Source: Candidatus Binatia bacterium (GTDB lineage Bacteria; Desulfobacterota; Binatia; UBA9968). Taken from it: a stretch of 64,000 nucleotides of DNA. Below the pieces are notes generated by a model that was not told the origin of the DNA, made no database searches, and saw only the letters and a list, made by a program, of their open reading frames with translations. The first letter of the stretch is position 1; the number at the start of each line of letters is the position of its first letter. Shown here piece by piece: positions 14,552 to 57,698 of this stretch. The stretch lies in contig DATBMR010000320.1 of NCBI GenBank assembly GCA_036554745.1, positions 1,732-65,731 on the forward strand, written 5' to 3'. Both the position numbers and the translations under genes were made by a program.

Positions 14552-15103
14552 ATGAAGCCTGTAAGTTTTCTGCAGGGCCGGGTGTGCGTTAAGGTCGGTG
14601 ACATTACCAAGGAAAATGTCGATGCGCTCGTGAACGCGGCCAACGGTACGTTGTTGGGCGGCGGCGGCGTCGATGGGGCGATTCATCGTGCCGGTGGGAG
14701 CGCCATCTTGGATGCATGCCGAGAAATCCGCCGCACGCAATATCCCGACGGCTTACCGACCGGCGAGGCGGTAATGACCGGCGGAGGCAACCTGCTGGCG
14801 AAGTACGTGATTCACACGGTCGGTCCGGTTTATGGGCGCGGCGGTCCTGAGAAGGCGGATTTGCTGGCGGCCTGTTATCGGAACTCGCTGGCGTTGGCGG
14901 TGGCCCATGGCCTTACGACCATCGCCTTTCCCGCGATTTCGACGGGCATTTATGGCTACCCGCAGAACCAAGCGGCCAAGGTCGTCTCCCACGCGATCGA
15001 GCAGTTCTTGGCAGGCGATCGTCACCTCAAAGAAGTTCGTCTGGTGTTTTTTAACGCCGGCGACGCCGAAGTGTTCTTGCAACATCAAGCGTTTACCGGA
15101 TAG
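14552..15103 (+). CDS. macro domain protein (O-acetyl-ADP-ribose deacetylase, YmdB-like)
   Basis: GDITKENVDALVNAANGTLLGGGGVDGAIHRAGG and AFPAISTGIYGYP. Confidence 0.85.
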   Translation: MKPVSFLQGRVCVKVGDITKENVDALVNAANGTLLGGGGVDGAIHRAGGSAILDACREIRRTQYPDGLPTGEAVMTGGGNLLAKYVIHTVGPVYGRGGPEKADLLAACYRNSLALAVAHGLTTIAFPAISTGIYGYPQNQAAKVVSHAIEQFLAGDRHLKEVRLVFFNAGDAEVFLQHQAFTG

Positions 15104-15188: not shown

Positions 15189-16613
15189 ATGTCGAAGCCA
15201 GCGAGCGCCATACGAATCGGTATCGAGGGAGTTTCTTATTCGCTGACCCATGTGCCCGAGCTGGTGCGCTACGGCTCCAAGCCTTTGCGCGAGCTGCGCG
15301 CCCGGCCTGGGTTGCGCGACCAACTGCCGAAACATCTGCGCAGCTTTGCCGCTGCGACCGCCTATGCGCCGCACCAAGTCTATATCGGTAACATCGCGCC
15401 GGAGACACTCAGCGAGCTCGCCACACCCTGGTATGAAAGACTGCTCGAGGGCGTCTTGCCGCGAGGCCGCTTCGGTGATCTCGTCAATCAGAACGAGTTT
15501 TACGCGCGCCTGGCGGCCGCCGATCGTTTCGGTCTGGTGACATTCGAGCAGCGCTGGTTTGACGCGCACGCGAGGGTTTATGCGAATTCGGGCGAGCTGC
15601 GGCTAGGCTCGTTCGGTGACATTGAGACACGTTGCTCCAAGGGGGCGCTGGCACTGTATTCCGGTGAGCGCCTCGTCGGTGCCGTGGAGCCGGGACATAT
15701 CGATGACGCCAATCTCGCGGCTGAAGTCTTGTTGGAAAATTTCGCGGCGAAGGTTACGGCCGCCCATGCATTGCGCGGGGTTTTGGATCGGCTCAAGCTG
15801 GCCCCGAGTGAGATCGATTACGTTATCAGTTGCTCCGAGGAAGCGGTCGGCGACCGTTACAACCGCGGCGGCGGCAATCTGGCTAAAGCGATCGCGGAAG
15901 ATGCCGGCTGTGAAAACGCATCCGGCTCGGACACCAAGGCGTTCTGCGCCGGCCCGATGTATGCGATGGTCCATGGGGCCAGTTTGATTCAAGCCGGTGT
16001 GGCCAAGAGAGTCGCCGTCGTTGCCGGTGGATCAGTGGCCAAACTGGGCATGAAATTCGAGGCGCATTTAAAAAAGCAGATGCCGATTTTGGAAGACGTG
16101 CTCGGCAGCTTCGCTGCGATCCTGGCGCCTGCCAAGCCGGGACAGCCATGTATCCGCCTCGACTCCGTGGCATTTCACCCGGTGCGTGCCGGGTCATCGC
16201 CCCAGCTGATGGCGGAACACCTTGCAGAAAAGCCGCTGGCCCGGCTCGGCATAAAATTGACCGATGTGGACCGTTACGGAGTGGAGCTGCATAATCCGGA
16301 GATCACGGTGCCTGCAGGGAGCGGCGATGTGCCGCGCACGAACTACTTGACGCTGGCGGCTCTGGCCGTGATGCGCGGCCAGATTCGCAAGAATCAGATG
16401 GAAGATTTCGTCCGGATGCGCGGCATGTTAGGTTACGCTCCGACCCAAGGGCACATTCCCTCGGCGATTGTTTACTTGGGCCATGCGCTCGAAGGTTTGC
16501 GCAGCGGAAAAATTCGGTGTGCATTGTTAATGGCTAAAGGCAGCCTGTTTCTCGGCCGCATGACACAGCTTTCTGACGGCTGCTCCTTCTTGGTTGATTG
16601 CAAGGAATCCTAG
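15189..16613 (+). CDS. GrdC-like protein (glycine/sarcosine/betaine reductase component C beta-subunit-like, thiolase/KAS fold)
   Basis: LPKHLRSFAAATAYAPHQVYIGN and ISCSEEAVGDRYNRGGGNLAKA match my recollection of GrdC. FCAGP...VAVVAGGSVAKLG is a thiolase-like pattern. The gene sits 10 nt upstream of grdA. The assignment is from memory and needs HMM confirmation. Confidence 0.5.
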   Translation: MSKPASAIRIGIEGVSYSLTHVPELVRYGSKPLRELRARPGLRDQLPKHLRSFAAATAYAPHQVYIGNIAPETLSELATPWYERLLEGVLPRGRFGDLVNQNEFYARLAAADRFGLVTFEQRWFDAHARVYANSGELRLGSFGDIETRCSKGALALYSGERLVGAVEPGHIDDANLAAEVLLENFAAKVTAAHALRGVLDRLKLAPSEIDYVISCSEEAVGDRYNRGGGNLAKAIAEDAGCENASGSDTKAFCAGPMYAMVHGASLIQAGVAKRVAVVAGGSVAKLGMKFEAHLKKQMPILEDVLGSFAAILAPAKPGQPCIRLDSVAFHPVRAGSSPQLMAEHLAEKPLARLGIKLTDVDRYGVELHNPEITVPAGSGDVPRTNYLTLAALAVMRGQIRKNQMEDFVRMRGMLGYAPTQGHIPSAIVYLGHALEGLRSGKIRCALLMAKGSLFLGRMTQLSDGCSFLVDCKES

Positions 16614-16623
16614 CGGAGGCTGA

Positions 16624-17079
16624 ATGCAAAAAGGGAAAAAAATCATCGCTATCGGCGAGCGCGACGGCGTCCCGGGTCCGGTGATCGCCGAATGCCTGGA
16701 AGGCGCGGGCTACGAAGTTGTCTTCCAAGCGACCGAATGCTTTGTTTGAACCGCCGCAGGCGCGATGAACTTCGAGAACCAGGGAGTCATCAAGCGCCTA
16801 GCGGACCAGTATGGTCCGGAAAATCTGACAGTGGTGTTGGGCAATGGCGAAGCTACTGGGGTCGAAGTCTTTGCCGAGACGGTGACCGAAGGCGATCCAA
16901 GCTATGCCGGACCGCTGACCGGGGTGACGCTAAAAATTCCCGTCTACCACATCCTTGAAAACGAAGTGATCTCGGTGGTGCCGGATCAACTGCGCGAAGA
17001 AAAGTTGCAGCTCTCGTGCTTGGTGATCGACGTCGAGCCGATGCACCGAGTGCTTAAAGCGTCGCGGGAGAAGCTCTGA
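16624..17079 (+). CDS. grdA: glycine/sarcosine/betaine reductase complex selenoprotein A (GrdA), with selenocysteine TGA at 16747-16749
   Basis: ATG 16624 follows GGAGG. The translation is [55 protein letters not shown]..., in frame with track ORF 16765..17079. CFVUTAAGAM is the GrdA redox-centre hallmark. Confidence 0.8.
16751..16804 (+). promoter_or_regulatory. candidate bacterial SECIS stem-loop downstream of the grdA UGA
   Basis: Nested helices: CCGC/GCGG, AGGCGC/GCGCCU, GAUGA/UCAUC and CUUC/GGAG, with a 9-nt apical loop GAGAACCAG (16774-16782). The structure begins 2 nt after the UGA. Confidence 0.45.
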
Positions 17080-17083
17080 ATGC

Positions 17084-17177
17084 GTTCAAGGTTCAAACGT
17101 TCAAAGTTCAAACCGTTTTCTTCGCTGGTATCCTTCTGACGATTTGAACGGCTTGAACGGTTTGCACGACTTGCACC
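17084..17177. repeat. inverted arrays of GTTCAA(A/G) heptamer-like repeats (long imperfect hairpin)
   Basis: The left arm is gttcaag-gttcaaac-gttcaaa-gttcaaacc (17084-17114). The right arm (17141-17177) is its imperfect reverse complement (tttgaacg gcttgaacg gtttgcacg acttgcacc). The element lies between the convergent grdA and binding-protein genes. Confidence 0.6.
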
Positions 17178-17189
17178 AACTTCTTGCCG

Positions 17190-18188
17190 CTATTTCCGCG
17201 ACAGCCCTTTTATGAACCCTGATTCCTCCAGTTCTTTGATAAGCCGGGTGTCGATGTAATCTTTGACATTGGCGTGCGCTGCCTTTGGGTTTTTTTCGGC
17301 CATCTCTTGGAGAACGAGCTGGTATCCCTCGGCCGGGGGGTAGGGCGCGTCGGGCATGAACTTCGCGTGCCAGTCCCAAGCGTCCTCGAGAAATTTTCGG
17401 TCATTGACGCGTGAATACTTGCCCATGATTTTGATCGTTTCTTCCTTGTTGGTTTTGTAGTAATGGATGCCCTCGACATAGGCACGCAGGTAACGCCGGA
17501 CCAGATCGGGCTTTTCACGAACCAATTTTGTCGAAGTATAAATACCGTTCTGAGGGAATGGAATCTTCAGTGCCACCATGTCGACGACTGTCGGGTAGCC
17601 GAGCTTTTCGGCCATCGCCTTGCCCGCTTCGGTGACCACAGTAAAATGGACGATGCCTTTCTGCAAAGCCACCATGCGTTCGATGGAGCCGCCGATGACG
17701 CGCAGCTGAACGTCCTTAAAGGGGTCGATACCGATTTTCTTCAAGCCGACTTTCAACGCGAACTCAGCCGTCGTGCCAGCGATATGATTGCCGCCGATCT
17801 TGCCGCGCAGATCCTCATGTTTCTTGATGGTCGGTTGCGCGACCAGGTAGTAGGGCAGCACGTTGACATTGCCCGCGACGGCGACCACGTCGCCGCCGGC
17901 GAGGCGCGCGCTTGCTAAGCCAGGTCCGCCGCCCTCGCCAATCAGGATTTCACCGGCCAAAATCGATTGAATGCCGCGCACGCTGCCGGAAATAAAGATG
18001 ACGGTCGCATCGATGCCGTGTTTGTCGAAGATTTTGGCGTCTTTGGCGACCCACAAAACTGACGAGGACCCGGGTGTTGTCGAGATATACGACGTGTTCA
18101 ACTTGTCGGCGGCCAAGGATGGCAGTGCGAGTAAAGTTAACAAAGCCGCCGCTATGAGTGAGACCCGTTGTCGGATTTTTTGCCGCAT
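17190..18188 (-). CDS. NMT1/THI5-like (NitT/TauT-type) ABC transporter substrate-binding protein
   Basis: A signal peptide is followed by SSSVLWVAKDAKIFDKHGIDATVIFISGS. GGGAGGG lies upstream of ATG 18188. Confidence 0.75.
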   Translation of the reverse strand: MRQKIRQRVSLIAAALLTLLALPSLAADKLNTSYISTTPGSSSVLWVAKDAKIFDKHGIDATVIFISGSVRGIQSILAGEILIGEGGGPGLASARLAGGDVVAVAGNVNVLPYYLVAQPTIKKHEDLRGKIGGNHIAGTTAEFALKVGLKKIGIDPFKDVQLRVIGGSIERMVALQKGIVHFTVVTEAGKAMAEKLGYPTVVDMVALKIPFPQNGIYTSTKLVREKPDLVRRYLRAYVEGIHYYKTNKEETIKIMGKYSRVNDRKFLEDAWDWHAKFMPDAPYPPAEGYQLVLQEMAEKNPKAAHANVKDYIDTRLIKELEESGFIKGLSRK

Positions 18189-19528: not shown

Positions 19529-20947
19529 TTAAGGGACGCCTATTTTACAAGCGATTCCGGTGGCGTCGGCGAATTTATTGAGCGCCGCGAGCGCGGCCAC
19601 TTTGTAACATTCCGCGAGCGTCGGGTAGTTAAACACAGCGTCAACAAAATAATCGAGTTTACCGCGGTGAGCGATCACCGCTTGGCCGATATGCACGAGT
19701 TCGGTGGCGCCTTCGCCGATTACATGGACGCCGAGCAGTTCTCGCGTCTCGCCGTGAAAGAGCAGCTTGAGCATACCCACCGTGTCCCCGATCAATTGTC
19801 CGCGCGCGATCTCGCGATAGCGCGCGACGCCGATCTCGTACGGCACGCCTGCGCGCGTAAGCTCGTCTTCGTTGCGGCCGACCATCGAGATTTCTGGGAT
19901 CGTATAGATGCCGTAGGGAAGTAAATGGATCGCGGTTTCGCAGGCGAGGCCGAAGGCGTGGCATGCCGCGTGACGCCCTTGTTGCATGGACGTGGATGCG
20001 AGAGCCGGGAACCCCACAACATCGCCGACGGCATAAATGTGCGGCACTGAAGTCTGAAAGTCTTTGTTCACTTTCAATCGACCCCGATCGTCAGCTTCGA
20101 TGCCGACTTTCTCAAGGCCGAGGTTCTTAGTCGCGCCGACACGCCCCGCTGAATAGACCAGCAGGGACGCGCGAATTTGTTTGCCGCTCTTAAGTTGCAG
20201 GACGACCAAGTTGCCGATCGGCTTGGATACGCCGACGACCTCTTCGTTGAGGCGCAAGGTAACGCCGACGTTGCGCATTTGATATTGTAGCGATTCCACA
20301 ATCTCGCTATCGACGAATTCAAGAAGTCGGGGTCGGCGCTCTACAAGGACCACGGGTATGCCTAAAGTGGCAAGTATCGAAGCGTATTCGCAGCCGATGA
20401 CGCCGCCGCCGACAATCGTCAGAGACTTGGGCAACTGCCGGAGCGAGAGCAGCGCGTCGCTGTCGACGATCGATTCTCCATCGAACGGAATGTCCGCCGG
20501 GCGCGCCGCTTCCGAGCCGACGGCGACGACAATGTAATCGGCGGTATGCTCATTGCCTTCGGAGCCTTGTTGAACCGCGAGACGGTGGGGGTCGACGAAA
20601 GACGCCGTGCCGATGATGAAGTCCACGGAATTTCGTACCAGTTGGTTTCGAACGATTTCTTGTTCGGCTTTGATCACGTGATCACAGCGTTGCGCGAGGT
20701 CCTCGAAAGTGATGTCTTTCTTGACGCGGTAGCTGGCGCCGTAAAGGTTGCGCTGGCGAAAACCCGAGAGAAACAGTACTGCTTCGCGCAGGGATTTGCT
20801 CGGGATAGTCCCGATATTGATGCAAACGCCGCCCGCAACGTTTTTTCGTTCGACGACGGCGACCTTCCTACCGACTTTCGCCGCTTGGATCGCCGCTTTT
20901 TGGCCGGCTGGGCCGGAGCCGATCACGAACATGTCATAGTGGGCCAT
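19529..20947 (-). CDS. sthA: soluble pyridine nucleotide transhydrogenase (Si-specific NAD(P)+ transhydrogenase)
   Basis: VIGSGPAGQKAA and GGVCINIGTIPSK (a single Cys rather than the CxxxxC disulfide), with the two-dinucleotide-fold layout of the flavoprotein disulfide reductase family. Confidence 0.8.
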   Translation of the reverse strand: MAHYDMFVIGSGPAGQKAAIQAAKVGRKVAVVERKNVAGGVCINIGTIPSKSLREAVLFLSGFRQRNLYGASYRVKKDITFEDLAQRCDHVIKAEQEIVRNQLVRNSVDFIIGTASFVDPHRLAVQQGSEGNEHTADYIVVAVGSEAARPADIPFDGESIVDSDALLSLRQLPKSLTIVGGGVIGCEYASILATLGIPVVLVERRPRLLEFVDSEIVESLQYQMRNVGVTLRLNEEVVGVSKPIGNLVVLQLKSGKQIRASLLVYSAGRVGATKNLGLEKVGIEADDRGRLKVNKDFQTSVPHIYAVGDVVGFPALASTSMQQGRHAACHAFGLACETAIHLLPYGIYTIPEISMVGRNEDELTRAGVPYEIGVARYREIARGQLIGDTVGMLKLLFHGETRELLGVHVIGEGATELVHIGQAVIAHRGKLDYFVDAVFNYPTLAECYKVAALAALNKFADATGIACKIGVP

Positions 20948-36061: not shown

Positions 36062-38137
36062 ATGACTTCATTTACTCGTAAACCAGTTGAAAATTTATTG
36101 CGCGCGAAGTCAGTGGCGATCGTCGGCGCTTCACCAAAAGGGGCATGGCCCCAGGGAATCTACCGGAATCTAAAAAACGCAAAATTCCCCGGCGGCGTAT
36201 ATCTTATCAACCCAAACTACAACGAATTGTTCGGCGACAAGTGCTATCCCAACCTCGCGGCGCTGCCGGAAGTGCCGGAGCAGTTGCTCATTCTCATTCC
36301 CACGCGCGCGGTTCTCGGTGTTTTGGAAGAGGCAGCGAAGCTCGGCACCAAGGCGGCGACCATTTATACCGCCGGCTTCGGTGAGGGCGACGATCCCAAA
36401 GGCAAAGAGCGAGCCGAAGCCATGAAAGATCTCTGCACACGCACCGGTATGGTGTTGTGTGGTCCGAACTGCATGGGCTCGTACTCGGTCGGCGAGGGGC
36501 TGTGGACGTTTCCGACCGCGAACCCGCTGCTCAAGAAGGGGCCGGTGGGATTGGTTTTTCAAAGCGGCGGCTCGCTCGGCAACTGGATCAAGGGGGCGAG
36601 CGAGCGCGGCATCGGGTTTACTTACGCGGTTTCCAGCGGCAACGAAGTAAGTCTCGATCTGGTCGATTATCTGTCGTTCCTGGTAGACGACCCCGACACC
36701 CGCCTGATCACGGTGATGGCCGAAGGCATTCGCCGGCCAGACGAGTTCATGACCGTTGCCGAGCACGCGCTCGGCAAGGGCAAGCCGATTCTAGTGGTCA
36801 AGCTGGGCCGCTCGGAGATGGGCAAACGCCAGGCGATCTCGCACACCGGTTCGCTGGCCGGCTCCGACGAAGTTTTCGATGCAGTCTGCAATCGTTTCGG
36901 TTTGATTCGCTGCCCCACGCTCGAAGACTTGACCGAAACCACTCTCGCTTTCATGGCAGGGCGATTTCCCAAAGGCAGCCGCTCGGCGATCGTCGTCAAC
37001 TCCGGTGGCATGAAGGGACTGATCTGTGATCATTGCGACGAGTTGAAGACCAATCTGGCACAGCTCAGTGATGAAACTAAGGAGGCGGTGCGGCCGCTGA
37101 TCCCCGCCGAGCTGGTCGTCGAGAATCCTTTGGAATGCGGCGTTGCCGGCTTTGGCGACGAGCAAGGGTTCATCAATATCGTCAAGCGTTACGCGGCAGA
37201 TCCCGGCGTCGATTTGCTTGCCATCCATGGCGAGTTGCCGCGCGGCCAGCAACGAAGCGCCGCACTCTTTAAAAGTGTCATGAGTGCGACGGATAAACCG
37301 GTGCTCGCGTTTGCCAGGTCGACCTATAGCTGTACGGATGAGAGCCGTGCCTTTCAGGAAGAAGCAGAGATGCCTTTCCTACAGGCGATCAAACCCACTT
37401 TGCGCGCGCTCGCCGGCCTCGGCTTATACGGTGAGCGCAGAGGGCGTGGTGTGCCGAAGCTGACTGCGCCGTCCGGGAACCCAGCCGATGTCGAAGGGGA
37501 GAATCTACATTCGCTGCTGCAACGACATGGCATCGGTTTGCCGAAACAAGCGATGGTTGGAACTGCCGCAGACGCGGCGGCGAAGGCAAAGGAAATCGGC
37601 TTTCCCGTAGCGGTCAAGTTGATCGCCGCCGAAGTCGTACACAAGACCGAGTCCGGCGCGGTCATTCTCGGAGTGAAAACGGCTGAAGAGGTCCAGGCCG
37701 AAGGACAGAAGCTACTGACTAAGACATTGGGGAGGGGCCATCTCTTGATCCAAGAGATGGTGCAGGGTACGGAAGTTCTGATCGGCGCGCGCAGCGACCC
37801 ACAGTATGGACCTTTTCTCATGGTCGGGCTCGGCGGTATCTTTGTCGAAGTTCTTAGGGATGTTTCGATTCGCCTCCTGCCGATCGATGAACGTGAGGCG
37901 CGCGACATGCTCAAAGAGCTGCGCGGCTACAGAGTGCTCGAAGGCGTCCGCGGTCAGGGGCCGCGCGACGTCGACGCGCTAGTAAAAGCGATGGTGGCGT
38001 TCTCGGAGATTTTCGCTGCGTATCGCAATTATCTGTCCGACATAGAGATCAATCCAATAATGGTTCGGCCGCGGGGTCAGGGAGCGGTTGCGGTAGATGT
38101 GCGGCTGGTGCGAAGTACAAAGTCTCAGGGTTTGTAG
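36062..38137 (+). CDS. ADP-forming acyl-CoA synthetase (acetate-CoA ligase family; CoA-binding + ATP-grasp fusion)
   Basis: 691 aa, with VAIVGASPK...NPNY (CoA-binding), the ligase-CoA domain GSLAGSD, and a C-terminal ATP-grasp domain (FPVAVKL...ESGAVILGV). Confidence 0.85.
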   Translation: MTSFTRKPVENLLRAKSVAIVGASPKGAWPQGIYRNLKNAKFPGGVYLINPNYNELFGDKCYPNLAALPEVPEQLLILIPTRAVLGVLEEAAKLGTKAATIYTAGFGEGDDPKGKERAEAMKDLCTRTGMVLCGPNCMGSYSVGEGLWTFPTANPLLKKGPVGLVFQSGGSLGNWIKGASERGIGFTYAVSSGNEVSLDLVDYLSFLVDDPDTRLITVMAEGIRRPDEFMTVAEHALGKGKPILVVKLGRSEMGKRQAISHTGSLAGSDEVFDAVCNRFGLIRCPTLEDLTETTLAFMAGRFPKGSRSAIVVNSGGMKGLICDHCDELKTNLAQLSDETKEAVRPLIPAELVVENPLECGVAGFGDEQGFINIVKRYAADPGVDLLAIHGELPRGQQRSAALFKSVMSATDKPVLAFARSTYSCTDESRAFQEEAEMPFLQAIKPTLRALAGLGLYGERRGRGVPKLTAPSGNPADVEGENLHSLLQRHGIGLPKQAMVGTAADAAAKAKEIGFPVAVKLIAAEVVHKTESGAVILGVKTAEEVQAEGQKLLTKTLGRGHLLIQEMVQGTEVLIGARSDPQYGPFLMVGLGGIFVEVLRDVSIRLLPIDEREARDMLKELRGYRVLEGVRGQGPRDVDALVKAMVAFSEIFAAYRNYLSDIEINPIMVRPRGQGAVAVDVRLVRSTKSQGL

Positions 38138-55416: not shown

Positions 55417-56103
55417 TCAATTTTGCGTGTCTTCCGATATGCGCCCTTGGTTTACCCGCAGCACTCGGGTGGCGCAGTGGCGCGCGAAATCTTCGTCATG
55501 AGTCGCCACAACCAGCGTGCGGCCTTCACGGGTCAAGCCGCGGAGCAGATCGCGCAGTTCCGTGCGCCGGTCCGCGTCAAGTGATGCGGTGGGCTCGTCC
55601 ATCAGCAAGAGCGGCGGGTCGACAGCGAGGGCACGAGCGATGGCGACCCGCTGGGCTTCGCCGCCGGAAAGCTCGCGCGGCAGCGCAGTCGCGCGATGCT
55701 CGATGCCAAGCGCCGAGAGCAATTCGCGGGCGCGGCGCTTGGCCTGGCGCCGGGGAATCCCGCGCGCATACACCGGCGCGAGCCAGACGTTTTTGAGGAC
55801 GGATAGGTGCTCAAAGAGATGGTGAAATTGGAACACCAGCCCGACTTTGGCGCGCAGCCGGTGAAGCACATTGGGGGAGTGGCAGCTGCCGGCGCACAAA
55901 GCAACGTCTTCCACCTGCACAGTCCCTGATTGAAACGTCTCAAGCCCGGCGATCACGCGGAGCAAGGTCGTTTTGCCGACACCGGACGGCCCCATCAACG
56001 CTACCAATTCGCCGCGCGCCACGTCGAACGTGGCCCCGCCAAGCACGCGCCGTTCACGACGAAAGAGATTCACGTCGTGCAAACGCAGCATGCGCTCGTT
56101 CAT
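55417..56103 (-). CDS. amino acid ABC transporter ATP-binding protein
   Basis: Walker A GPSGVGKTT, signature [15 protein letters not shown] and Walker B LLLMDEPTASLD. Confidence 0.9.
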   Translation of the reverse strand: MNERMLRLHDVNLFRRERRVLGGATFDVARGELVALMGPSGVGKTTLLRVIAGLETFQSGTVQVEDVALCAGSCHSPNVLHRLRAKVGLVFQFHHLFEHLSVLKNVWLAPVYARGIPRRQAKRRARELLSALGIEHRATALPRELSGGEAQRVAIARALAVDPPLLLMDEPTASLDADRRTELRDLLRGLTREGRTLVVATHDEDFARHCATRVLRVNQGRISEDTQN

Positions 56104-57698
56104 GCCGCTTGCACCCTCCAGCGTTGCTCAAGCCGCCGCGCCAATGCGGCCAACGGCAGGGACATCGCGAGATAAAGACCGGCGCACAGCAAGCCGGGAA
56201 TGATCCACGTACCGGTGTTCGTGGCGAAAATCTGCGTCTGCTTGGTCAGCTCGAGCACCGTAAGTACGGAGACGAGCGACGAGTCCTTCAGTAGGGCAAT
56301 AAAGTCGTTGGTCATTGGCGCCAACGCGAGGCGGAAGGCTTGCGGTCCCCGCACAAGAGTCAGCACCCGGCATTCGCTTAGGCCTAGGATGCGCGCAGCC
56401 TCAAGTTGACCGACCGGAACCGCTTCGAGTGCGCCGCGATAGATTTCGCTTTCATAGGCCGCGTAATTGAGCGCCAGACCTAAGAGCGCCGCGCCGAAAG
56501 CCGGCAGGCGAATCACATCGGCGATGCCGTAGTAAAGAACGAAGAGCTGGAGCAAGATCGGCGTGCCGCGCATGATCTCGACGTAACCGGTCAGGAGTGT
56601 TCTTGCGAGGGTGTTGCCGTAAACGCGCCCGCTCGCGATCGAGATCCCGAGCACTATTGCAAGCCCCATCGCCAGACACGAAAGCACGATGGTTACGACC
56701 GAAGCGCGCAAAAGCGATGGCAGATAGCGCAGTGTAGTTTGCCATGCGGAGAGCGCCGGCGCGGCATCGGCCGTCGTAAAACCGCTGATCGGAGGAACCG
56801 GCTCGCCGGCGAGAACTTGCGCATGAAGATCCGCTTGATCGCGATTCCAGACCCGCCACCTGCGAAAAATCTTTTCCAAAGTGCCGTCGCGCATGGCGCC
56901 GCGCAGTATTTCATTGACCTCGTCGCGCAGGACCATATTTCGCACCGCCAGCACGCCCACATAGTGGCCCACGGCAACGCTCTGCGGTTGAATGGTGAAC
57001 CCGGGGATCGATCGGGCACGTCGCTCGGCGAGAACATGGTCGAGCAGCACGGCGTCGACGCGACCGATCACCAAATCGCTGTAAGGATGGACGTCATCAT
57101 CGTAGGAAACCGGGTGTACGCCGAACTCTTGCTCCGCGCGCAGCAAGATTTGATAAGCAATCGTGCCGCCAAGCGTCGCGACGCGCCGGCCTCGAAGATC
57201 CGCGAGGCTGCGAAAGCGGGCTGCGTCCGAGTCGCGGACGCTCAGGACTTCGCGAAACCGGTAATAGGGAATCGTGGGTGCCATAGTTGCGCGCCGTGCC
57301 GGAGTGTCTTCGATGCCGCTGAGGCCGATCTCGGCATCGCCGCGCCCGATGGATTGGTCGATCGACGTGAAAGCAATATTGACAAAGCGCGCTCGACTCC
57401 CGAGTTTGCTCGCGATCAGTTCGGCGATCTCGACGTCGAAACCGACCAGCTTATCGGGCCGAGCCGGATCAGCCTCGACAAACGGCGCGCCGCCTTCAGG
57501 ATCGCCGGCCCAGCGGAATTCATGAATCGGTTCTGCGGTCTCGGAGAGAACCGGCGCCAAGGTCATTGAGGTCGTAAGAGCGGCCACCCGGATTAGGTAC
57601 CGTATTTTGGGCTTTATGGGATTGGTTTGCGCAGCTGCCGGAAAAACAGATTGAAGTTTATTTGTCAGGCGGGCTCGATGAAAGGTCAAAATCGCCAT
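56100..57698 (-). CDS. fused amino acid ABC transporter substrate-binding / permease protein
   Basis: The N-terminal type-3 SBP region is LVGFDVEIAELIASKLG. The C-terminal permease has the EAA loop QLEAARILGLSECRVLTLVRGPQA. The stop overlaps the ATPase start, and the N-terminal start is uncertain. Confidence 0.75.
   Translation of the reverse strand: MAILTFHRARLTNKLQSVFPAAAQTNPIKPKIRYLIRVAALTTSMTLAPVLSETAEPIHEFRWAGDPEGGAPFVEADPARPDKLVGFDVEIAELIASKLGSRARFVNIAFTSIDQSIGRGDAEIGLSGIEDTPARRATMAPTIPYYRFREVLSVRDSDAARFRSLADLRGRRVATLGGTIAYQILLRAEQEFGVHPVSYDDDVHPYSDLVIGRVDAVLLDHVLAERRARSIPGFTIQPQSVAVGHYVGVLAVRNMVLRDEVNEILRGAMRDGTLEKIFRRWRVWNRDQADLHAQVLAGEPVPPISGFTTADAAPALSAWQTTLRYLPSLLRASVVTIVLSCLAMGLAIVLGISIASGRVYGNTLARTLLTGYVEIMRGTPILLQLFVLYYGIADVIRLPAFGAALLGLALNYAAYESEIYRGALEAVPVGQLEAARILGLSECRVLTLVRGPQAFRLALAPMTNDFIALLKDSSLVSVLTVLELTKQTQIFATNTGTWIIPGLLCAGLYLAMSLPLAALARRLEQRWRVQAA

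Follow-up and report, generated by a model that had tools for sequence, protein, structure and literature searches.

The grdC-grdA locus

The window analysed here, a 64-kb stretch of DNA from a soil bacterium of the Candidatus Binatia type with 57% GC, contains two consecutive forward-strand genes related to parts of the glycine reductase (Grd) system. The first, a grdC-like gene (15189..16613, + strand), encodes a 474-aa protein classed as the thiolase-fold beta subunit of protein C, in a GrdD-less subclass (see below). This protein matches the NCBIfam equivalog model NF040746, "reductase complex component C subunit beta", with 540.5 bits for a cutoff of 450 bits, in agreement with the GrdC identity proposed in a preliminary description of this DNA. 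That description had made its reading depend on a match of the 474-aa protein to GrdC profiles, so the match leaves the reading standing. The Pfam domain DUF5940 lies at the C-terminus, and matches to ACP_syn_III and Thiolase_N are weak. An AlphaFold2 model (pLDDT 91.5) found FabH, OleA, thiolase and PKS18 as its best Foldseek matches (E about 1e-11). As modelled, GrdC is a protein of thiolase-like fold with a conserved putative active-site cysteine, C253, which is invariant in 83 of the 83 GrdC sequences compared. The fold is like that of FabH/KAS III, OleA and biosynthetic thiolase (TM about 0.5 on the target), and the presumed nucleophilic cysteine is found in an xFCAGP context resembling that of FabH. 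However, sequence identity to FabH, OleA and thiolase is just 14-20%, GrdC has an extra N-terminal region of ~170 residues in addition to the DUF5940 C-terminal part, and its presumed acyl donor is a selenoprotein, whereas enzymes of the thiolase superfamily use CoA or ACP. The assignment is therefore one to the predicted thiolase fold, with no membership of the FabH, OleA or thiolase enzyme families claimed. Besides C253, the window's GrdC retains H293, H330, N385 and H422, all conserved throughout the family, and it carries K31, R223, Y224, K289 and H368, the signature of the GrdD-less subclass.

The two genes are separated by a 10-nt spacer (16614..16623, + strand) that holds the GGAGG ribosome-binding site of grdA (TAG CGGAGGCTGA ATG). 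This arrangement, which had been described before and can be read directly off the sequence, suggests co-transcription and coupled translation of grdC and grdA. The second gene, grdA (16624..17079, + strand), encodes selenoprotein A, 151 aa long including Sec42 in the motif C39-F-V-U42. With the TGA read through, the product matches PF04723 (181 bits) and NF040748 (184.8 bits; cutoff 130 bits); together with the in-frame TGA, these scores uphold the earlier identification of grdA as a selenoprotein gene. The Sec codon (UGA; 16747..16749, + strand) lies in frame within ECFV-U-TAAGAM and is aligned with the stop codon of all GrdA homologues. Whether orthologues carry Sec or Cys had been raised as a point to check: in the related loci the position holds a stop codon in 75 of 75 GrdA genes and a Cys codon in none.

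A hairpin located just 3' of the UGA (16754..16804, + strand) is a candidate bacterial SECIS element. Its minimum free energy is -27.8 kcal/mol (z -3.4), and only one of 200 shuffled sequences folds as well. The hairpin stretch is 95% identical in DNA among six Binatia-type loci, and invariant third-codon positions in grdA number 18/30 in codons 41-70 versus 24/122 elsewhere. A UGA, a stable hairpin and synonymous-site constraint are thereby all found at grdA. An Rfam scan of the window gave no match to the hairpin and no catalogued SECIS. A tRNA scan of the 64 kb found no tRNA, hence no tRNA-Sec, and no sel gene was found in the 64 kb by Pfam/NCBIfam annotation.

Gene neighborhood and content of the window

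A Macro-domain gene of the O-acetyl-ADP-ribose deacetylase family (14552..15103, + strand; NF001664, 222.5 bits, cutoff 200) ends 85 nt upstream of grdC, and an NMT1-type binding-protein gene (17190..18188) lies downstream, convergent to grdA. Annotation bears out both neighbors as they were first described. In loci L004, L006, L008-L010 and L084-L089, as in the window, grdC is immediately preceded by the Macro gene at a distance of 30-85 nt; three inserted genes lie between the two in L001-L003. Membership of the Macro gene in the Grd system is uncertain, and the adjacency may be plain synteny because all such loci are of one lineage. A role of the Macro and NMT1 genes as functional partners of the pair was considered but is unsupported, their conservation being confined to one lineage in which NMT1 genes are very numerous.

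When the six-frame translation of all 64 kb was searched with HMMs for the Grd and Trx parts, nothing was detected for GrdB, GrdE, GrdD or TrxA; the matches were to GrdC itself and, at 39 bits, to a single TrxB-like protein. The latter, a flavoprotein encoded at 19529-20947, was rejected as a dedicated GrdA reductase since it is the soluble transhydrogenase SthA (654 bits). Pfam/NCBIfam annotation of most of the larger ORFs (115 aa or longer, beyond the part annotated by synteny) revealed no further Sel, Trx or Grd gene. The profile searches and the annotation thus agree with the preliminary description in finding grdB, grdE, grdD, trxA/B and sel genes absent from the 64 kb. Its remark that the genome looks non-clostridial is right as well, the type being that of the Binatia. 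No pseudogene remnants of grdE or grdB were seen in the window, including the region beside a transporter gene homologous to the one between the B modules of L147. A promoter and terminator scan around the grdC-grdA pair gave no more than chance.

Recurrence of the gene pair

More than 16 contigs of the Candidatus Binatia-type soil lineage carry the grdC-grdA pair in the same syntenic setting. None of these loci has a grdB or grdE gene less than 10 kb away from the pair, and neither does the window, from 15 kb upstream to 47 kb downstream. Stand-alone pairs occur in at least seven separate lineages (L012/L033, L018, L028, L046, L054, L058, L077, L079), so that the neighborhood survey suggested at the outset yielded recurrent grdC-grdA pairs devoid of grdB and grdD both inside and outside the Binatia-type group. 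Genes near the stand-alone pairs encode EVE, TIR, amidohydrolase, M20 peptidase, CN-hydrolase and hydantoinase proteins, and no recurring alternative partner was found beside such pairs in other phyla. The nearest relatives of the pair (GrdC about 50%, GrdA about 58% identity) form a sister clade, L011, L023 and L050, in which grdC-grdA-grdE-grdB make up one operon. Parts of the reductase have drifted apart in still other lineages (L016, L049, L060, L064). A GrdC-like search returned at least 7426 matches (sequence clusters) and a GrdE search 1863, numbers that depend on word-sharing with the query and do not amount to a clean census.

Binatia GrdC retains nearly all of the residues conserved across all GrdC proteins, and Binatia GrdA retains the conserved 26-residue segment as well as PVYH. 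Since ancestral residues are kept, both proteins probably retain their ancestral job, which needs a carboxymethyl donor. Values of dN/dS among Binatia-type loci are 0.06-0.12 for grdC and 0.06-0.08 for grdA, indicative of strong purifying selection. These values, the retention of the Sec codon with its constrained hairpin, and reading frames that are intact in thousands of homologues (73-99% identity) already contradict the notion that the pair is what is left of a reductase operon undergoing decay, with no function today; the component genes missing from the neighborhood would speak for this notion, but it is extremely improbable. Literature searches on orphan grdA or grdC genes, GrdD-less clusters and Grd proteins in Binatia found nothing relevant.

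A probable GrdD-less variant in many phyla

In the clostridial-type reductases of Eubacterium acidaminophilum, Clostridium sticklandii and C. difficile, the parts are GrdA, GrdB plus GrdE (or GrdF/G or GrdH/I), GrdC plus GrdD, and TrxA/TrxB. GrdD, the PlsX-like alpha subunit of protein C, carries the acetyl-thioester cysteine and forms acetyl phosphate. A sample of 80 GrdC loci from many phyla was divided into 14 canonical and 66 non-canonical loci. The GrdD HMM detected an adjacent grdD gene in 14/14 canonical loci and none within 10 kb in the 66 non-canonical ones; it found nothing in the 64-kb window or in any Binatia-type locus, and grdD was likewise absent within 10 kb of 80 metagenome GrdE loci. 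The grdD-bearing loci form one monophyletic clade of the Firmicutes type. In nearly all non-canonical loci, grdA directly follows grdC, taking the operon slot normally held by grdD, and grdE-grdB are usually found alongside. Residues 31, 223, 224, 289 and 368 of GrdC switch with the presence of GrdD, and in GrdC-GrdD fusions positions 31, 223 and 289 hold the residues typical of GrdD-linked proteins.

GrdD-less grdE-grdB-grdC-grdA clusters occur in Chloroflexota, Thermodesulfobacteriota, Actinomycetota, Methylomirabilota, Nitrospinota and others; no description of them was found in the searchable literature. They share with the Binatia pair the GrdC subclass signature, the order grdC-then-grdA, and Sec in GrdA, but differ from it in that the protein B genes are adjacent in most of them and consistently at another locus in the Binatia-type clade. 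Judging from these sequence comparisons, the pair most likely represents a widespread form of the system in which the customary last subunit, GrdD, is not encoded.

Protein B genes at separate loci

Scanning metagenomes with GrdE identified about 17 orphan grdE-grdB loci without grdC, all in one clade. Within this clade the GrdE proteins share 67-82% identity, and their identity to GrdE from elsewhere does not exceed 42%. The tetranucleotide composition of the longer orphan grdE-grdB contigs correlates with that of the window at 0.92-0.96, the correlation for GrdC loci of other lineages being at most 0.81. Among the members of the 90% clusters of the orphan B proteins are five that carry the NCBI label Candidatus Binatia, and a PPK2 flanking the orphan B module is Binatia-labelled as well; the same clusters also bear the labels Verrucomicrobiae, Limnocylindria and Terriglobales, Binatia being a broad class and MAG labels noisy. 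Furthermore, short intergenic repeats are common to the B-module and the grdC-grdA contigs. On the long contigs L173, L174 and L175 the B module stands alone, and neither grdD nor trx was found alongside either half.

No contig or MAG with both halves was found. A comparison of NCBI accession ranges gave no match between the two sets, and synteny between B-module contigs and the window was limited to paralogue-level or transporter matches. Two GrdE homologue searches had no Binatia-labelled match among the best 120, as expected from the strong divergence of Binatia GrdE. The orphan PAC2-grdE-grdB loci L091 and L092 were dismissed as the missing half, their tetranucleotide correlation with the window being just 0.25-0.37. 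Binatia GrdB, a Sec protein, has UxxGxxS and thus lacks both cysteines of the canonical UxxCxxC; it scores 287-332 bits with TIGR01918, far below the GrdB/F/H equivalog cutoffs. These features raise the possibility that Binatia GrdB may not do the canonical job.

A probable split reductase

The reading we favor, with a probability of roughly 0.6, is that the pair constitutes the protein A and protein C (beta) half of a selenium-dependent, GrdD-less reductase of the glycine/sarcosine/betaine type encoded in two unlinked pieces; we infer that both halves reside in the window's genome. In the protein B module, a GrdB-family selenoprotein and a pyruvoyl proprotein resembling GrdE would together bind a substrate of the amino-acid type, most likely one derived from glycine, such as sarcosine or betaine, and, by analogy, transfer a carboxymethyl group onto Sec42 of GrdA. 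GrdC would then accept the two carbons on Cys253 in the form of an acetyl thioester, and His422 and Asn385 may assist in catalysis. During this transfer Cys39 of GrdA would form a Se-S bond, and housekeeping thiol reductants would re-reduce GrdA. Because GrdD is missing, the acetyl group would have to leave GrdC directly, presumably to phosphate, CoA or water. Every chemical step of this scheme is drawn from the clostridial enzyme (Andreesen 2004, as cited in PMC13188914). Of the two explanations in the preliminary description, a split reductase or a minimal uncharacterised module, the split is thus favored as far as protein B is concerned, given the orphan grdE-grdB loci; a complete grdB/E/D-trx cluster elsewhere was not found.

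That the pair is instead an autonomous GrdA-GrdC module acting without Grd protein B appears unlikely. Its Sec could be loaded by another enzyme, or alkylated directly by an electrophile such as a haloacetate, with GrdC then converting the Se-carboxymethyl group to acetyl; or GrdA and GrdC could together form a couple for selenol/thiol redox chemistry or acyl transfer. The orphan grdE-grdB genes would in that event belong to other Binatia genomes or have another purpose. The empty surroundings of the Binatia-type pairs, the stand-alone pairs of other lineages and the excess of GrdC-like over GrdE matches all point that way, as does the failure to find both halves on one contig or in one MAG. 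In addition, Arkowitz and Abeles (1991) reportedly found that clostridial protein C accepts Se-carboxymethyl-selenoprotein A prepared by chemical means. However, the orphan B modules have Binatia composition, Binatia labels and shared repeats, their divergence spread resembles that of the pair (GrdE 76-82%, GrdC 71-83%), the ancestral residues of GrdC and GrdA are kept, no alternative partner recurs across lineages, and the match counts vary with the query. Also rather unlikely is a canonical reductase whose grdD, trxA, trxB and grdE-grdB genes are scattered elsewhere, with clostridial chemistry in which GrdD produces acetyl phosphate. The Binatia-type lineage evidently has its protein B at a separate locus, so other parts, grdD, trxA and trxB among them, might be unlinked too, the searches having covered individual contigs; the thioredoxin system is a housekeeping one whose linkage to grd genes is not obligatory for function. 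What weighs against such scattering is the absence of grdD from every non-canonical and metagenome GrdE locus against its presence in all canonical ones, the monophyly of the GrdD-linked clade, the five GrdC positions that track GrdD, and the occupation of its operon slot by grdA.

A wider extension of the split, GrdD-less reading is offered tentatively: outside Firmicutes there would be a large, so far undescribed class of GrdD-independent, selenium-dependent reductases, abundant in Binatia and other soil lineages, in which GrdC alone finishes the reaction. The basic residues specific to this class, K31, R223, K289 and H368, might serve to bind CoA or phosphate, so that acetyl-CoA, and not acetyl phosphate, could be the product. 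The Binatia member would have an unlinked, highly divergent protein B and a non-glycine substrate. Glycine reductase is generally regarded as an uncommon enzyme found in strict anaerobes, with energy gained via acetyl phosphate from GrdC-GrdD. GrdBE was counted in just 107 species from natural habitats (PMC9751293). The present data suggest that outside the Firmicutes most Grd-type systems have no GrdD, encode GrdA downstream of GrdC and possess a GrdC signature of their own, and that one of them is very common among soil bacteria of the Binatia type, the window's GrdC having matched more than 7400 sequence clusters. If GrdC alone releases the acetyl group, it would be necessary to revise the energetics assumed for these reductases and their product, the genomic criteria by which MAGs are said to encode a "glycine reductase" or a reductive glycine pathway, and estimates of soil selenium use. 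The four genes in two loci provide a concrete test system for the two-carbon handover from selenoprotein A.

Comparison with the clostridial reductase

As in the clostridial system, Binatia GrdA has the CxxU motif with Sec, Binatia GrdC passes the equivalog cutoff and keeps the family-wide Cys, His and Asn, and genes of the GrdE and GrdB (Sec) families exist on Binatia-type contigs. Unlike in that system, the Binatia-type modules have no grdD nearby and no linked trx genes, and protein B is unlinked, divergent and of the UxxGxxS type. The gene order also differs, grdA following grdC in Binatia and preceding grdB in clostridia, and so does the host, a soil bacterium as opposed to a fermenting Firmicute. 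Finally, Binatia GrdC, with its distinct signature, is about 40 residues shorter than clostridial GrdC.

The grdC-grdA pair and its surroundings

The grdC-like gene (15189-16613, + strand; 474 aa) matches the NCBIfam model for the reductase complex component C subunit beta with 540.5 bits (cutoff 450), in keeping with its original assignment. Its C-terminus corresponds to Pfam DUF5940, and the ACP_syn_III and Thiolase_N matches are weak. The TAG stop is followed by 10 nt that include GGAGG and then by the ATG of grdA (16624-17079, + strand), which encodes 151 residues on read-through and matches PF04723 (181 bits) and NF040748 (184.8 bits; cutoff 130). A TGA at 16747-16749, within the signature ECFV-U-TAAGAM, interrupts the frame. 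A hairpin (-27.8 kcal/mol, z -3.4) begins a few bases 3' of this UGA, in a stretch that is 95% identical at the DNA level over six related loci. Across the same loci, 18 of 30 third-codon positions are invariant in codons 41-70 versus 24 of 122 in the remainder of grdA, the pattern expected from an RNA element overlapping the coding sequence. The stable hairpin and the constrained third positions support decoding of the UGA as Sec. A Macro-domain gene ends 85 nt upstream of grdC and a convergent NMT1-type binding-protein gene lies downstream of grdA, as originally described. The spacer between the convergent genes (17080-17190) contains imperfect inverted GTTCAAAC/GTTTGAAC-type repeats and may terminate transcription in both directions; 21 nt of it are found again at the same place in comparison loci L085 and L086.

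The AlphaFold2 model of GrdC (mean pLDDT 91.5, pTM 0.92) has its best PDB matches in FabH, OleA, thiolases, PKS18 and SpoVAD (E ~1e-11, TM ~0.5 on the target); for GrdC itself there is no solved structure. Cys253, in the FabH-like context FCAGP, is invariant in all 83 GrdC proteins compared, among which H293, H330, N385 and H422 are also conserved. Binatia GrdC differs clearly from the family-wide consensus only at G328A, P428V and E470D and, near the Sec motif, Binatia GrdA differs only in AMNFENQ (AMDLENQ in others) and LKIPVYH (LGLPVYH).

HMMs for GrdB, GrdE, GrdD, TrxA and TrxB were made from related loci, their identities being verified with NCBIfam, and were run against all 64 kb in six-frame translation. 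Apart from GrdC, they recovered only a TrxB-like match of 39 bits. This match is the disulfide-reductase-like flavoprotein near the pair (19529-20947, - strand; Pyr_redox_2/Pyr_redox_dim), which is not a thioredoxin reductase but the soluble pyridine-nucleotide transhydrogenase SthA (654 bits; cutoff 465). Pfam/NCBIfam annotation of most remaining larger ORFs (>=115 aa) identified ordinary metabolism and transport genes, metH, proB/proA, obg and L21, and no Sel, Trx or Grd genes. No grdE or grdB remnant was present in the window, and tRNA and Rfam scans of it gave no match. Over this scope, the reported lack of grdB, grdE, grdD, trxA/B and sel genes was upheld; the preliminary description of the window proved correct in all respects checked. 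A 691-aa ADP-forming acyl-CoA synthetase-like protein (CoA_binding_2, Succ_CoA_lig, ATP-grasp_5) is encoded at 36062-38134 (+ strand), 19 kb downstream of the pair.

In a large protein collection, at least 7426 clusters are homologous to the GrdC-like protein. Every one of the best 120 is 73-99% identical, and the NCBI-named clusters among them are mostly Candidatus Binatia, with a few Limnocylindria or Terriglobales. Gene order was read from more than 16 contigs of the Binatia-type clade, some of them in assemblies of 0.16-1.97 Mb. Every contig has the order RidA - HNH - HAD - CorA - Macro - grdC - grdA(Sec) - NMT1 - HAD - PPOX - SthA - cyclodeaminase - amino-acid ABC transporter - citrate synthase, and none carries grdB, grdE, grdD or trx within 10 kb of the pair. 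With dN/dS of 0.06-0.12, grdC and grdA both evolve under strong purifying selection, which marks the pair as a functional unit that is being maintained, not as debris.

A GrdC subclass without linked grdD

An alignment of diverse GrdC sequences, searched against a single genome for each species, yielded 80 loci from many phyla, which were sorted by six-frame HMM searches and a GrdC tree. The 14 canonical loci (trxB-trxA-grdE-grdA-grdB-grdC-grdD; GrdC of 512-531 aa) form a single clade comprising Firmicutes and some Synergistota, Calditrichota and Varibaculum. In about 50 others, from Chloroflexota, Thermodesulfobacteriota, Actinomycetota, Methylomirabilota, Nitrospinota, Armatimonadota and other hosts, grdE-grdB accompanies grdC, grdA lies nearly always directly 3' of grdC, and no grdD occurs within 10 kb. 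The third layout, grdC-grdA alone, is that of the Binatia-type clade and of at least seven further lineages, each separate, so that the pair does recur elsewhere without grdB or grdD. As to whether GrdA orthologues carry Sec or Cys, a stop codon occupies the Sec position in 75 of 75 genes.

Residue states in GrdC split GrdD-linked proteins from all others (window numbering; GrdD-less state first): K/T at 31, V/C at 220, R/M at 223, Y/N at 224, K/N at 289 and H/Q at 368. Four natural GrdC-GrdD fusions from a representative search (P0125, P0127, P0129 and P0135; 842-861 aa) all have the GrdD-linked states at 31, 223 and 289, not K31/R223/K289, and three of them also at 224 and 368. Since the absence of GrdD extends over many loci and is matched by GrdC residue states, it is not peculiar to the window; judged by sequence, it is a property of a large GrdC subclass that includes the window's gene. 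The basic residues among the class-specific states hint at binding of phosphate or CoA. The searchable literature yielded no description of this subclass; in Desulfovibrio desulfuricans, the best-studied non-Firmicute case, both C subunits are present (PMC7547702).

Two Anaerolineae-type genomes (L012:8844-13711 and L033:8844-14100) have the order CaiB-type CoA-transferase - grdC - trxA - grdA - betaine-aldehyde-dehydrogenase-like ALDH - acyl-CoA dehydrogenase, with hydantoinase genes upstream of the stand-alone pair. The same ALDH family lies 3' of grdA in Acidimicrobiia loci L032 and L070.

Unlinked protein B modules in Binatia-type DNA

In the sister clade of Binatia-type GrdC (Nitrospinota-like loci L011, L023 and L050), grdC-grdA-grdE-grdB is a single operon. 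Among the best 120 matches listed by searches for GrdE homologues, none has a Binatia label. Orphan PAC2-grdE-grdB loci (L091:7121-10427 and L092:7154-10395) were rejected as the missing half, their composition being unlike that of the window (tetranucleotide r 0.25-0.37). They lie on contigs of 0.6-1.4 Mb from another lineage, and neither grdC nor grdA occurs within 8 kb of them; splitting thus extends beyond Binatia.

Scanning metagenomes with an alignment of diverse GrdE sequences returned 80 loci, 17 of which form a tight clade (67-82% mutual identity, <=42% to any other GrdE) where grdE-grdB is present and grdC never. The longer of these loci correlate with the window at 0.92-0.96 in tetranucleotide composition; by the same yardstick, 8-kb Binatia-type grdC-grdA fragments have a median of 0.93 and fall no lower than 0.90, and GrdC loci of other lineages reach at most 0.81. 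By exact-sequence look-up, the 90% clusters of the B-module proteins hold five Candidatus Binatia-labelled NCBI proteins (HEY3150318.1, HXK29634.1, MDZ4342715.1, HET7006429.1 and HET7005203.1), and a PPK2 flanking the module has a Binatia label too. Stray Limnocylindrales and Verrucomicrobiae labels also occur, with similar label noise in the GrdC-like clusters. Short intergenic repeats (56-118 nt, 80-93% identical) occur scattered on different Binatia-type contigs and served as a lineage marker; B-module and grdC-grdA contigs have such repeats in common at 85-93% identity. Of these elements, L157:180-295 resembles L084:11898-12012 and L085:345-462, and L173:20171-20226 resembles L084:17007-17061. 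The module also stands alone where the contig is long (259 kb for L173, 252 kb for L174, 146 kb for L175), and among the Binatia-type sequences compared no single contig or MAG was found to carry both grdC-grdA and grdE-grdB.

Identical or >90% identical proteins of both modules bear NCBI MAG labels of several phyla (Binatia, Verrucomicrobiae, Limnocylindria/-ales, Terriglobales and Deltaproteobacteria), a mixture that suggests noise in the binning or labelling of catalogued soil MAGs.

The Binatia-type GrdB-family proteins (L164:6492-7820, L170 and L163) keep the in-frame TGA but have the motif U-G-T-G-T-R-S-G, in which neither cysteine of the canonical U-x-x-C-x-x-C is left; L147 has a second copy (L147:11356-12700) with U-x-x-C-x-x-S. 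They pass only the broad selenoprotein-B subfamily model TIGR01918 (287-332 bits), scoring about 295 bits against GrdH and GrdF models with cutoffs of 775-800; the GrdE-like partner reaches 204-240 bits against a cutoff of 780. Their TTGTG stretch is nearer the GrdF motif given in the methods of PMC9751293 than the glycine-type TxGNxTxV. Genes beside the modules encode ABC transporters of the amino-acid type and binding proteins of the NMT1/SsuA type. For the substrate, natural guesses are sarcosine, betaine or a related amine.

An ABC transporter in the window (55417-57698, - strand; ATPase plus fused binding-protein/permease) shares 70-76% protein identity with one (L147:5221-7517) that sits between two divergent grdE-grdB modules on a Binatia-type contig. 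No grd remnant lies beside the window copy.

Interpretation of the pair

The best-supported reading, to which we assign a probability of about 60%, is a split, GrdD-less reductase. By analogy with the clostridial enzyme, from which the chemistry is carried over, an unlinked protein B would place a carboxymethyl group on Sec42 of GrdA and GrdC would accept the two-carbon group as an acetyl thioester on Cys253; general thiol systems would re-reduce GrdA, and the acetyl unit would depart without GrdD. The preliminary description had weighed a reductase split across the genome against a minimal module, and the split is the better option: orphan grdE-grdB in Binatia-type DNA favours it as regards protein B. 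A complete grdB/E/D-trx cluster was not found, neither half having grdD or trx beside it. Outside that frame fall a GrdD-less subclass that spans phyla and has grdA where grdD would stand, the very high abundance of this subclass among Binatia-type bacteria of soil, and its probable partnership in these bacteria with an unlinked protein B that has diverged strongly.

A scattered system that is canonical in every part, its grdD encoded elsewhere, would also fit the unlinked protein B; it appears rather unlikely, the window GrdC having the residue states of the GrdD-less class. An autonomous GrdA-GrdC module, independent of protein B, is consistent with the stand-alone pairs of other lineages, and the B modules of window-like composition make it rather unlikely. 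That the pair is a relic is contradicted by the selection data and has a negligible chance of being right.

The GrdD-less class may be approachable in culture. In the cultured Bacillota Lentibacillus kapialis JCM 12580 (L040), the order is grdE-grdB-grdA-trxB-grdC-trxA, and grdD does not occur within 10 kb. The GrdC of this strain clusters with the GrdD-less class, and the strain could be a test organism.
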